DNA of 32,000 bases from Candidatus Brocadia sp. (GTDB lineage Bacteria > Planctomycetota > Brocadiia > Brocadiales > Brocadiaceae), in assembly GCA_021650915.1 (NCBI GenBank), contig CP091279.1:3510001-3542000 (forward strand), in the 5' to 3' direction. Positions within the stretch are counted from its first letter, which is position 1, and each line of letters begins with the position of its first letter. The notes below the pieces were generated by a model. That model made no database searches. It was given only the letters and a program-made list of their open reading frames with translations, and had not been told where the DNA came from. A program made the translations under genes and the position numbers. This document shows positions 18,467 through 31,095 of the stretch, piece after piece.

Positions 18467-18736
18467 GTATAACAATTTAGTTTTTTGAAAAATCCCGAAG
18501 GGATGACATGATTATAGAAAAAGCGCGCCACCATATTCAACCCCGTAAGGGGTGAAATATCGGGAAAATAGCGATACTATGCCTTCCCTACGGAGTTAAC
18601 CATGCTTGCGTAACAACAAACTATAATCATGTCATCCCTTCGGGATTACAGAATCAATATTTTGTTCACTCGCACTGATTGTGAGCAAAAGTTCGCCGAA
18701 TAGATACGGAAATTTTTCAAAAAACTAAATTGTTAC
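18467..18736. mobile_element. MITE-like non-coding palindromic element whose termini match the IS66-like element at 28685-31095
   Basis: The outer inverted repeats are TAACAATTTAGTTTTTTGAAAAAT (18470-18493) and its exact reverse complement (18712-18735, ending GTTAC at 18736). They match the IS terminus GTAACACTTTAGTTCTTTGAAAAATT at 25 of 27 positions. An inner perfect 24-bp inverted repeat is CCCGAAGGGATGACATGATTATAG (18494-18517 and 18621-18644). No ORF. Confidence 0.65.
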
Positions 18737-28056: not shown

Positions 28057-28404
28057 ATGGATGTTTATGAAGAGGTGAAACAGGCATTACAGGACATTGT
28101 AGTGCCGGAACTAAAGGCACTGCAGGTCGAGATAAGGCGTCTTGATGAGAAAATTGATTCGTTAGACGAAAGATTAAATGCACGTATAGATTCACTGGAC
28201 AAAAGTGTAAATGCACATATAGACTCGCTGGACAAAGGCTTAAATGCACGCATGGATTCGCTAAAGGCAGAAATAACTACAGAGATAAAACGGTTGGACG
28301 AAAAAATAGATATTGCCATTCAGATAAGGGAACGACTTGCAGCCATTGAAGGCAGATTTGAAGAACGTGAAAGAAGGCGCTCACCCGCAAAGACAAAAAA
28401 ATAA
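28057..28404 (+). CDS. Small coiled-coil protein with hendecad (11-aa) repeats, function unknown
   Basis: IDSLDERLNAR / IDSLDKSVNAH / IDSLDKGLNAR / MDSLKAEITTE, flanked by RRLDEKID and KRLDEKID. Basic C-terminal tail. Confidence 0.6.
   Translation: MDVYEEVKQALQDIVVPELKALQVEIRRLDEKIDSLDERLNARIDSLDKSVNAHIDSLDKGLNARMDSLKAEITTEIKRLDEKIDIAIQIRERLAAIEGRFEERERRRSPAKTKK
28153..28284 (+). repeat. Four tandem 33-bp units (the last degenerate) encoding the hendecad repeats
   Basis: Units at 28153-28185, 28186-28218, 28219-28251 and 28252-28284, in frame within the CDS. Confidence 0.85.
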
Positions 28405-28498: not shown

Positions 28499-28553
28499 GG
28501 GTTCACGTTTGCCTGCCTGTGCGTGGCCGCACGCAGGCAGGCAACTTGAACCC
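28499..28553. other. Long GC-rich imperfect hairpin (about 22 bp of pairing)
   Basis: GGGTTCA-cgt-TTGCCTGCCTG-TGCG-tggc-CGCA-cg-CAGGCAGGCAA-ct-TGAACCC read directly. It lies about 95 nt downstream of the coiled-coil CDS stop. No U-tract. Confidence 0.5.
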
Positions 28554-28684: not shown

Positions 28685-28759
28685 GTAACACTTTAGTTCT
28701 TTGAAAAATTAACAAGCGATTTTGCAAGCAAACCCAGAAGGCGTTTTCACCATAAGGGC
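28685..28759. repeat. Left terminal inverted repeat of the IS66-like element
   Basis: GTAACACTTTAGTTCTTTGAAAAATTAACAAGCGATTTTGCAAGCAAACCCAGAAGGCGTTTTCACCATAAGGGC. Confidence 0.85.
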
Positions 28760-30078
28760 ATTTTTTGCGCTAGCCAGAAGATTTTCCACTGGATTGATTC
28801 TTTGTAATTCAGCAGAACGAAGCAGAGACATAAGGATGGCCTGTGTCTTAGCGCCACCTCAGAGCGGTTCTGCTGTGAGACCTTTCTGGTCAATACTGGC
28901 TTTCGCATCTGTTGCTCAGCATGGTTGTTATAGGGACTGACATCCTCATGTTCCAGGAACGTAAAGAGTTCCTGTTTATGGCGGTTCAGGCGTTTGGTCA
29001 ATCTTTGTGCATCTTTATCCTGGCAGGGTGTTGCCAAAAACTGTTCAAGCCTGCAATACAGTCTATTTTTGAGCCTGAGAAAGCATGCCGGGTTTATCTG
29101 GTGCTTTTTCTCGGATAGCCGGATGGCATCCCTGAGTAATCGGGAGAGTTTTCTCCTGAAACTTTTCCATGAGACAGAATGGTTGTAGGTGTCTACTTTC
29201 ACGAGTTCCGTAAAGAGATGATAGAAACACCGCTGCTTTGCCAGTGCGCTTGTCTTGTTATAAGCGCCCCAGAAGTCGCAGATCAGGATGCCCTTGAAGA
29301 GTCTGCCTAAGAACCTTTTTATGACAGGCGACCCCCGATTCCGTGTTATAAGGTAGTAGCAGAGGGTTTTGGTGGTAAAACACCATAACCAATGGGTTTT
29401 TCCATTCAACCGCCACCCGGTTTCATCTGCGTGCAAGACGGCGCTGGTAGAGACCTTTTGTCCAATATCGTTATACTGTGGTTCCAGGAGTGTTGCAAGA
29501 GCCTTCCAGGCCTGGGTTAAACCACCGGCGCTTACGTGAAGATTGAAAAATACGGAAACCATCTTTACAAGGTTGTTTACACTGATACCGACTACGTAAT
29601 GAAGCCAGGCGGTAAAGACAACGAGGCGCAATCCGAGTCGGGCGTTTGGCAAGGCATCGGTGAGCGCGGGCTGAACGATCTTTTTGCAACAAGCACACCA
29701 GTAGCCATGAACCGTATGTTCCGTCACGACAGGGTCGACCCGGGGGATATCCTCGATGTATCGCTTATACGTTCTCACCGGCTTTTGTAATGACTGCTGG
29801 CAGTCAGGGCACCTCTCCAGGGTATGTGTCTTATAGGCAGTTATGGTTTCCGGTCGTCTTCGGGAAACCCCCTTATGTCCTGGTTTTCTGCCACAAGGTC
29901 GTTTTCTCTTTTTACGGGTAGGCTTGAGATAAGGTGGCGTCATGCCCGAAGGGGTAGTTGGGCTTGGTTTATCGCAGAGTCGGTCATACTTCTCTGCCTT
30001 CCCGGCCAGTATCAGGATGACTTGAATCGCATCCTCTCTGTTCATCTCCAGGATGGCTCGGGCTTCATCCCTGGTCAT
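28747..30078 (-). CDS. IS66-family DDE transposase (TnpC-like)
   Basis: Zinc-finger pairs CPDCQQSL...YWCACCKK, and the DDE region LHADETGWRLNGKTHWLWCFTT typical of IS66 TnpC. The start is taken at MTRDEARAIL (Met32 of the track ORF), which overlaps the upstream stop by 14 nt. Confidence 0.85.
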   Translation of the reverse strand: MTRDEARAILEMNREDAIQVILILAGKAEKYDRLCDKPSPTTPSGMTPPYLKPTRKKRKRPCGRKPGHKGVSRRRPETITAYKTHTLERCPDCQQSLQKPVRTYKRYIEDIPRVDPVVTEHTVHGYWCACCKKIVQPALTDALPNARLGLRLVVFTAWLHYVVGISVNNLVKMVSVFFNLHVSAGGLTQAWKALATLLEPQYNDIGQKVSTSAVLHADETGWRLNGKTHWLWCFTTKTLCYYLITRNRGSPVIKRFLGRLFKGILICDFWGAYNKTSALAKQRCFYHLFTELVKVDTYNHSVSWKSFRRKLSRLLRDAIRLSEKKHQINPACFLRLKNRLYCRLEQFLATPCQDKDAQRLTKRLNRHKQELFTFLEHEDVSPYNNHAEQQMRKPVLTRKVSQQNRSEVALRHRPSLCLCFVLLNYKESIQWKIFWLAQKMPLW

Positions 30079-30946
30079 GAGCAAGAAGCCTCCGGAAATT
30101 TTTCTCAAGAGGATACAGGTAGAGTTCCTTCGTCTGGCCATGATACCGATAGGTATTGCCCCGTTTTGCACTGCCTTTGGTTTTTCCTACACGGAGCCAA
30201 TTAGCTGCCTGATAGCAAGTGCCTTGAAATCGCGCGGTATCAACAAAGGTCTCCGCCAAATACACGGGATGTCCGTAGACAGCTTCCCAGTCATCTGACA
30301 AACGCTTGAGGGCAAGGGATAATACCTTGGATGCAAGGTGTTTGACCGTAACCCAGGGGGGAATGAGGAATCGCACGTTACTGGCAATTAAATGCAAGTG
30401 GGTGCGTTTGGTGGTCTCATCCCATCCGATGAAACGGTCACGGTCTTTGACCTTCCATGCTGCGCTTGCCCATCCAAGACAGGCAACGACCTGATTGCCG
30501 ATATGTACGATGTGCCTGACGTGTTCTCCAACAAGCCGGGGACATCCGAGGTAGTGGTAGTGATAGAGGAGATAACCCCAGAGGTAACTCTCTTGAGGGT
30601 CTTTTACCACCTGGATCGTCGGGATTTCATACCCGGTGATAGTGCCTCCCAGTGTGCTTTTGACAAAAAGGGGTATCTGATCAAATATCTTAGGTTTCAG
30701 ATTGTTTTTTGGTCGTATGCGGCCTGGAAGCGCTACCAGGCCCTGCTCTTCCAATCGCAGAAGGAGGTCTCGTGCCGCGTATTCTTTCAGCTTGCCATTG
30801 GGCTGCACCCAGTTCCAACTTTTGCAAAGTTCACGGGAAATATAACTCCGCCCTTTGAGAAAATAACTATCAATGAGCGCCTTGATAAAGGCTATATCGT
30901 CTGTATGCAGTTTCCGTGAACGGTATTGGAATAGTATTGGCTTCAT
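30065..30946 (-). CDS. DUF4338-like protein (the domain found in Druantia DruA), carried inside the IS
   Basis: YLWGYLLYHYHYLGCPRLVGEHVRHIV...VVACLGWASAAWKVKDRDRFIGW...NVRFLIPPWVTVKHLASKVLSLALKRLSDDWEAVYGHPVYLAETFVDTARFQGTCYQAANW matches my recollection of DUF4338 conserved blocks. Not verified by HMM. Confidence 0.7.
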   Translation of the reverse strand: MKPILFQYRSRKLHTDDIAFIKALIDSYFLKGRSYISRELCKSWNWVQPNGKLKEYAARDLLLRLEEQGLVALPGRIRPKNNLKPKIFDQIPLFVKSTLGGTITGYEIPTIQVVKDPQESYLWGYLLYHYHYLGCPRLVGEHVRHIVHIGNQVVACLGWASAAWKVKDRDRFIGWDETTKRTHLHLIASNVRFLIPPWVTVKHLASKVLSLALKRLSDDWEAVYGHPVYLAETFVDTARFQGTCYQAANWLRVGKTKGSAKRGNTYRYHGQTKELYLYPLEKNFRRLLAHDQG

Positions 30947-31020
30947 AAACAGGTTCCTTTTCTCTGAAGCCTTTTATACCACAAATGGAAAACTGACGTC
31001 AGCTTTTTTTGTATCTTAAC

Positions 31021-31095
31021 GCCCTGATGGTTAAAACGCCTTCTGGGTTTGCTTATAAAACCGCTTGTTAATTTTTCAAAGAACTAAAGTGTTAC
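31021..31095. repeat. Right terminal inverted repeat of the IS66-like element
   Basis: The reverse complement reads GTAACACTTTAGTTCTTTGAAAAATTAACAAGCGGTTTTATAAGCAAACCCAGAAGGCGTTTTAACCATCAGGGC. Confidence 0.85.

Follow-up and report, generated by a model that had tools for sequence, protein, structure and literature searches.

We describe a 2411-bp mobile element in a stretch of DNA 32,000 nucleotides long (contig CP091279.1, positions 3,510,001 to 3,542,000; the whole stretch is referred to below as the window, and positions are counted from its first letter unless a genome coordinate is given). The element is almost certainly a copy of an IS66-family insertion sequence with two genes, one for a protein of the DruA/DUF4338 family and the other for a DDE transposase. 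It holds only two long open reading frames (ORFs), both on the minus strand (Table). The product of the first, 293 amino acids long, matches the Pfam family PF14236 DruA (formerly DUF4338) with an E-value of 2e-39 and 136 bits (cut-off 27), and an earlier interpretation made from the letters alone, hereafter the sequence-only reading, had thus named the domain correctly. The product of the second, tnpC, matches PF03050 DDE_Tnp_IS66 (E 1.6e-35), zf-IS66 (E 6.7e-7) and the NCBIfam model NF033517 transpos_IS66 (E 2.8e-66, 224 bits against a cut-off of 180). The same reading had a DUF4338 gene standing in the place of tnpA and tnpB, and this holds as well: there is no tnpA- or tnpB-like ORF within the element, and PF05717 TnpB_IS66 gave 0 matches in the complete 4.05-Mb single-contig genome, while controls matched in 3 of 14 genomes.

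Table. Features of the insertion sequence and of a related element in the window
Feature	Position in window	Strand	Remarks
Whole insertion sequence, 2411 bp	28685-31095	-	both genes on minus strand
Terminal inverted repeat, upstream end, by DruA-like gene	31018-31095	.	72/78 match to other end (70/75)
DruA-like gene, 293 aa	30065-30946	-	Pfam PF14236; precedes tnpC
Coupling region	30065-30093	-	GGAGG ribosome-binding site 30089-30093; tnpC ATG 30076-30078; DruA-like stop 30065-30067
IS66-type DDE transposase gene tnpC	28747-30078	-	start ATG at 30078, stop at 28747; PF03050, zf-IS66, NF033517; 443 codons as it stands
1-bp deletion in tnpC, one A lost from GAGGATGG	between 28856 and 28857	-	alignment of four long copies
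Displaced native C-terminal tnpC segment, now out of frame	28712-28855	-	tblastn of relatives' TnpC
Terminal inverted repeat, transposase end	28685-28762	.	overlaps native 3' end of tnpC
Miniature inverted-repeat element, 268 bp, related termini	18469-18736	.	no target duplication at this copy

The transposase gene was said to be preceded by, and to share 14 nt with, the gene for the 293-amino-acid protein, and the ORFs agree with that description. The overlap (30065-30078, sequence ATGACCAGGGATGA) has GGAGG 10 nt upstream. Of 10 elements that we compared, 9 keep both overlap and GGAGG, among them relatives at ~65% protein identity; in L039 the start codon is GTG and GGAGG is missing, and L038, L034 and L037 are each slightly variant. 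At the named genome loci with more than 57% identity and room downstream, the DruA-like gene is in all cases followed by an overlapping IS66 transposase gene, and these transposases have diverged to the same degree as the DruA-like proteins. The ratio of nonsynonymous to synonymous substitution rates (dN/dS) is 0.10-0.17 for the DruA-like gene (0.10 against the closest relative, L031) and 0.145-0.16 for tnpC. The gene pair is translationally coupled, co-diverging and under equal purifying selection. A separate observation concerns the region just upstream of the tnpC start (30079-30186), inside the DruA-like gene, where the tnpC frame stays open for 34-95 codons upstream of the ATG in 10 of 10 elements (L031-L039 and the window copy) and the third frame is open over the same region for just 0-49 codons. 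A programmed DruA-TnpC fusion by +1 frameshifting is conceivable but unsupported, and we do not propose it because tnpC has a conserved ribosome-binding site and ATG of its own, which speak for independent initiation.

The association of the DruA-like protein with transposases extends beyond IS66. We found 3515 homologues, most of them on contigs of ~2.4 kb, that is, of the size of the element. Many homologues have more than 65% identity and occur in Thermodesulfobacteriota, Myxococcota, Pseudomonadota, Chloroflexota, Bacillota and bacteria of the candidate phyla radiation (CPR); a plasmid collection yielded just two distant relatives. At 73 loci, one of them L040 from the unpublished genome G032, we scanned with Pfam the next ORF downstream of the DruA-like gene, and a DDE transposase domain was present in at least 58 of the 73: IS66 in 47, DDE_Tnp_1 in nine (four with a Tn5-type DNA-binding domain and five with DUF772), DDE_5 in one and DDE_Tnp_2 in one. 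Clustering by BLAST placed 67 of 72 downstream ORFs with transposases, namely 51 IS66, 11 IS5-like, 4 Tn5-like and 1 IS701. This clustering and the tree described below leave out L040, the removal of which would not alter the conclusion. The sequence-only reading had suggested a survey of how often DUF4338 genes adjoin IS66-type transposases; among these loci, such a neighbour was present at most by either count.

In many homologues the two proteins are joined into one. Of the 150 best cluster representatives, 38 exceed 420 amino acids in length; the DruA domain is present in 38 of 38, and ~31 of them are fused to a transposase (16 of ISAs1 type, 6 DDE_5, 5 of Tn5 type, 3 IS66 and 1 DDE_3). 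One such fusion carries the RefSeq name 'ISAs1 family transposase'. The genome that contains the window (G000) has 21 PF14236 matches, including fusions of ISAs1, IS701 and Tn5 type and an IS66 chimera. The ISAs1-type fusion, 455 amino acids long and present in about ten copies, combines the DruA-like GNAT domain, without the N-terminal domain, with DDE_Tnp_1_assoc and DDE_Tnp_1 (for example G000:C1:475216-476583, L111:2216-3583), and several copies have an in-frame TGA upstream of the match. The IS701-type protein joins a DruA-like part to DDE_5 in 742 amino acids (G000:C1:3301363-3303591, L113:1864-4092). In the Tn5-type case a DruA-like part with Tnp_DNA_bind is followed by a separate ORF with the Tn5 dimerisation domain (G000 3285846-3287872; L115:846-2872, minus strand), and in the chimera the part fused to the DruA-like protein is the C-terminal half of an IS66 DDE domain (G000 1928577-1929929, L114:2078-3430).

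A tree of 82 DruA-like proteins requires 6 changes of transposase partner family where the minimum possible is 4, and host phyla are scrambled on it. On it, IS66-linked lineages surround the IS5-like, Tn5-like, IS701 and ISAs1 partners; the tree comes from a quick search with midpoint rooting and has the fused forms on long branches, so that the direction of partner switches is not established by it.

What the DruA-like protein might do is suggested by its predicted structure. An AlphaFold model built from an alignment of 61 sequences reached a predicted local distance difference test score (pLDDT) of 90.7; a model built from 14 close sequences reached 50.6 and was discarded. In the accepted model, residues 1-67 form a short hairpin followed by three helices, and a linker leads from there to an alpha/beta GNAT domain (residues ~104-289). 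Assignment of DUF4338 to the GNAT fold had already been made by Aravind's group (PMC10853773), the only one of the papers searched to do so. The N-terminal helical domain resembles a winged helix-turn-helix and, judging from its helical pattern and position in the model, probably binds DNA. The ISAs1-type fusions lack this domain and keep the GNAT fold, which fits a role that the transposase's own DNA-binding domain could replace. A sequence-profile search of solved structures returned none at E <=1. With Foldseek the top match to the model was the Mom protein of phage Mu (8bv8, E 2.8e-6), and 8bv8 again came top when 48,161 chains were searched exhaustively with VIA (Z 14.4, root-mean-square deviation 3.3, 163 residues, 18% identity). 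Generic GNAT acetyltransferases, among them the protein N-acetyltransferases RimI, Ard1 and Naa, rank below Mom (VIA Z <=12.6), and the tRNA/rRNA cytidine acetyltransferases TmcA and NAT10 also stand high in the structural ranking.

In double-stranded DNA, Mom attaches glycine taken from Gly-tRNA to N6 of adenine, and its residues H58, Y59, R111, S124, D149, R151 and Y159 are important or essential for activity (PMC13219725). We compared the two families with a Mom profile built from a 30-sequence family (the residue numbers of that paper equal those of the AF083977 coding sequence plus 10). The profile-profile alignment, with which a multiple alignment agrees, has an E-value of 1.6e-3 and 25% identity over 168 columns, and some relatives match the Pfam Mom family PF25680 directly at E 1e-5 to 7e-7. 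In this alignment Mom H58-Y59 corresponds to H131-Y132 of the DruA-like protein, S124 to S206, D149 to D236 and Y159 to Y245. Five of the seven Mom active-site residues are therefore matched by residues that are invariant or near-invariant in the DruA-like family, which has 12 invariant and ~29 near-invariant positions across 61 sequences down to 32% identity. The two families also share a C-terminal His...Leu strand motif, and both Mom and the DruA-like protein travel with an element that transposes by a DDE enzyme. They differ in that the DruA-like protein has an extra N-terminal domain.

We also compared the protein with DruA of the Druantia anti-phage system, from which the Pfam family has its name. 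The PADLOC DruA models matched neither the 293-amino-acid protein nor its fused paralogues, even at E <=10, and the PF14236 match of the 293-amino-acid protein spans model positions 48-221 of 297, whereas genuine DruA spans 2-297. PF09369, the zinc-ribbon marker of the DruE helicase, gave 0 matches in the complete genome, with controls matching in 8 of 14 genomes. For comparison we used 251 gammaproteobacterial genomes, in which three PF14236 matches cover the whole model (246-348 bits) and all others only positions ~40-225; this statement rests on G081, G216 and G234 (the unpublished G070 and G148 were unused). One full-length match lies in a druA-(952-aa gene)-druD-druE locus, identified by PADLOC DruA1 (1e-196), DruD1 (5e-130) and DruE1 (E = 0). 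The single 952-amino-acid gene of that locus (L122:14952-17810, minus strand, genome G216) has no PADLOC match and stands at the place expected for druB and druC. DruA of Druantia type I belongs to an operon with druB to druE, the last encoding a large helicase; the gene studied here has a transposase gene downstream and no druD or druE beside it. Genuine DruA is homologous to the insertion-sequence family (hhalign probability 95.8%, E 8e-9), over a 91-column core only. Where that family has its Mom-like residues, genuine DruA has T/H-W, G-G-K and other residues, together with a large insertion, and lacks the Mom-like His-Tyr, Ser and Asp; the C-terminal His...Leu strand motif is common to all three. 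Together these results show that the insertion-sequence proteins are a distinct subfamily and not Druantia DruA, with a presumed active site closer to Mom than to DruA. The sequence-only reading had hoped for a functional handle on the domain as a whole. For Druantia DruA the handle is weaker than hoped: because genuine DruA has diverged at the Mom-like positions, what can be carried over from the insertion-sequence proteins to Druantia is limited.

The ends of the element are fixed by three full copies in the genome with 99% identity and by ~90 pairs of related termini that share the boundary bases GTAAC/GTTAC. Both terminal inverted repeats start with GTAAC, and the 75-bp repeats with 70 of 75 identical positions and a GTAA start that had been predicted are indeed present, their full span being 78 bp at 72 of 78. 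Extension outward to 93 nt reached only A/T-rich flank. Repeats of this length are confined to the window element and its closest relative, L031 (79 nt, 99% complementary); in other relatives, including those from other phyla, the repeats are 22-26 nt long and the core is kept almost identical. The native TnpC C-terminus of L031 also matches the opposite end of the element in inverted orientation, and the long repeat is therefore an inverted copy of the 3' end of tnpC. The 75-78 bp ends are thus a trait of the one sublineage shared with L031, around a conserved core of 22-26 bp. An 8-bp target duplication is a hallmark of IS66 elements in the ISfinder definition. As had been reported, the window copy lacks one, its flanks GAAACTTC and AAAAATTT agreeing at 5 of 8 positions; the full-length relative L036, from a Moraniibacteriota metagenome-assembled genome (MAG), is flanked by the perfect 8-bp duplication CTTTCCTG.

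Among known groups, the element presumably belongs on the side of IS66 that lacks tnpA and tnpB, the ISBst12-like group as we take ISfinder to define it. It resembles that group in its IS66 DDE and zf-IS66 domains, GTAA ends, 8-bp duplications and absence of tnpA and tnpB. In ISBst12-like elements, however, the transposase is the sole gene, whereas here an apparently obligatory, translationally coupled second gene is added that encodes a winged helix-turn-helix-like domain and a Mom-like GNAT domain, and the 78-bp inverted ends are particular to the sublineage of the window. The nearest plasmid-borne IS66 transposases (<=29% identity) come from single-gene elements in Bacillus, cyanobacteria, haloarchaea and Deinococcus. 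With canonical IS66 elements of the tnpA-tnpB-tnpC type the element shares the transposase family, the end sequences, the duplication size and the arrangement of small coupled accessory genes upstream, but it has neither tnpA nor tnpB, and its accessory gene is unrelated to either.

The genome contains three full copies of the element, one left-truncated copy, two copies of one 1.26-kb internal-deletion derivative and several fragments. All four long copies retain an undamaged DruA-like ORF (99.3-100% identity; 7 substitutions in 879 bp), and tnpC is damaged in all four by independent lesions, apart from one duplication shared by two full copies. In the window copy the 1-bp deletion makes the native tnpC frame end after ~codon 407, and the last ~48 residues are replaced by a 36-residue tail. 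Residues ~409-455 of the relatives' TnpC, which are 455-458 amino acids long, match the displaced segment in frame 3 (85% for L031). The DDE core is complete as far as the frameshift; the window copy is slightly decayed through loss of its native C-terminal ~48 residues. We rejected sequencing error as the cause of this frameshift and consider it unlikely because the site is not a homopolymer. In the two other full copies the lesion is a common 10-bp tandem duplication, AAAGATGCAC, and the truncated copy has a different 1-bp deletion. The deletion derivatives (G000:C1:727573-728828 and 2100652-2101830) join 278 DruA-like residues to the tnpC tail, and the deletion shared by both implies either mobilisation in trans or duplication. 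Separately, the same 8-mer, AAGAAATC, is found at G000:C1:2100644-2100651 on the left flank of one copy and at 2163701-2163708 on the right flank of another, the two copies lying 63 kb apart in the same orientation. This pair may be the footprint of a composite transposon, or a coincidence arising from an A/T-rich target preference, which is plausible.

Related termini of the form GTAACAYTTTAGYTTTTTGAAAAAT occur 228 times in the genome and pair into 90, mostly miniature inverted-repeat transposable elements (MITEs) of at least three size classes (151 bp, 267-269 bp and 131-139 bp). Perfect 8-bp direct repeats flank 49 of the 90 pairs, and about a dozen more pairs have repeats that differ at one base. 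The MITEs share only the terminal ~30 nt with the element, and their termini depart from those of the element in one place, with T instead of C at base 15; an intact autonomous partner of the MITEs was not identified in the genome. The MITE-like element that the sequence-only reading had placed near 18.5 kb is real and has related termini; it is one of 10 copies of 267-269 bp, and perfect 8-bp duplications flank 8 of the 10. The suggestion that the family has been active was also right, as full copies at 99% identity, deletion derivatives and ~90 MITE pairs in this genome show. The survey of ends and duplications over genomic copies, likewise proposed there, located 8-bp duplications at MITE pairs and none at full copies.

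Some other features of the locus and its host were recorded. Just outside the element (28057-28404) is a 115-amino-acid ORF of three 33-bp tandem repeats (IDSLD... units), which is followed at 28509-28544 by a G+C-rich palindrome of 18+18 nt. A scan for sigma-70 promoters gave none on the coding strand, although the sigma-70 model may not suit the host, which is probably a planctomycete. Two matches to HZS_alpha in the genome, and a Planctomycetota MAG as the source of the element's closest relative, make an anammox planctomycete probable.

The DruA-like protein is probably an integral partner of the transposase rather than cargo, because of its recurrent in-frame fusion to the N-terminus of unrelated DDE transposases, the fixed gene order, the co-divergence of the two genes and the purifying selection on them. 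We lean, on the strength of the model and the shared residues, towards the view that it is a catalytically active Mom-like GNAT transferase, and it is possible by analogy with Mom, with lower confidence, that DNA is its substrate. In the mechanism that we propose, the N-terminal helical domain would bring the protein to DNA, a task that the transposase would take over in the fusions, and the protein would covalently modify a nucleic-acid or transpososome substrate during transposition. The likeliest substrate would be DNA at or near the element, modified either to mark it as self and so regulate transposition, or to protect intermediates of the transposition reaction. We regard this explanation as a whole as moderately probable. 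Its most specific form, in which the partner would be a Mom-type modifier of DNA bases, possibly with an aminoacyl-tRNA donor, that insertion sequences of five or more DDE families have recruited for marking or protecting DNA during transposition, is rather unlikely to be right in full.

Several observations weigh against this explanation. No target duplication was found at the window copy, at the other two full copies or at the deletion derivative, and the DruA-like ORF is intact in every long copy while each tnpC is broken. The latter would also fit a function independent of transposition, such as that of cargo with a Mom-like anti-restriction or defence role for host or vector DNA. Mom itself shields Mu DNA against restriction (PMC13219725), a defence protein gave the Pfam family its name, and the distribution among genomes of the same genus is patchy, all of which would suit a cargo gene. 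Cargo genes do not, however, become fused in frame time and again to transposase N-termini, as has happened here in at least four DDE families; gene order, overlap and ribosome-binding site are near-invariant across the clade, and both genes co-diverge at equal dN/dS. With so few substitutions among the copies, the intact ORFs are suggestive but only weakly informative, since their intactness could be chance. We therefore consider a cargo role improbable.

Other difficulties concern catalysis. The direct match of the window protein to the Pfam Mom family (E 3e-3, 17.6 bits) falls under the gathering threshold of 27.1, and hhalign probabilities are only 3-16% although the E-values range from 0.015 to 0.0016. 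Mom R151 is not aligned, R239 being one column away; the essential R111 has no counterpart; and the essential helix-turn-helix-like insertion of Mom (residues ~175-209) is absent, with a short loop there instead. In place of the canonical GNAT acyl-CoA loop (Q/RxxGxG/A) the DruA-like protein has K-H-L-A-S. Taken together with the ISAs1-type fusions, which lose the N-terminal domain and keep the fold, the missing residues and altered loop would be understandable if the partner were a non-catalytic subunit whose GNAT fold provides the transpososome only with a scaffold, or with a module for DNA binding, targeting or regulation such as an inhibitor of transposition. The invariant and near-invariant residues cluster, however, at the His-Tyr, Ser, Asp and Tyr of the Mom active site, a pattern typical of enzymes, and we assign a non-catalytic role a low probability. 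An active acyltransferase could instead act on protein, and its target would then be the transposase or a nucleoid or replication factor of the host: proteins and small molecules are the substrates of most GNATs, RimI, Ard1 and Naa are the structural matches after Mom, and fusion to a transposase puts a protein substrate in cis. We find this quite implausible, given that Mom, an enzyme acting on double-stranded DNA, is the source of both the closest fold and the shared active-site residues, that the RNA-modifying TmcA and NAT10 also rank high, and that the predicted N-terminal helical domain suggests binding to nucleic acid.

To our knowledge, DDE insertion sequences have few accessory proteins, and these are poorly understood; we know of no role for TnpA and TnpB of IS66. 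The literature that we searched contained nothing on DUF4338, PF14236 or DruA with IS66 or other transposases, nor on a pairing of GNAT or Mom proteins with insertion sequences, and DruA is unmentioned in a preprint on YprA and Druantia; the role of the partner in transposition is undescribed in this literature. NCBI names homologues borne by insertion sequences 'Druantia anti-phage system protein DruA' despite their failure with PADLOC and their transposase neighbours, and censuses of defence systems based on domains may consequently overcount Druantia. If the interpretation as a Mom-type base modifier is true, the protein would be the first transposon-encoded accessory for DNA hypermodification, and Mom, the insertion-sequence family and Druantia DruA would fall in one nucleic-acid-directed branch of GNAT proteins. 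The association of a conserved, enzyme-like module with at least five unrelated transposase families in many phyla points to a general, so far undescribed step in transposition or its control.

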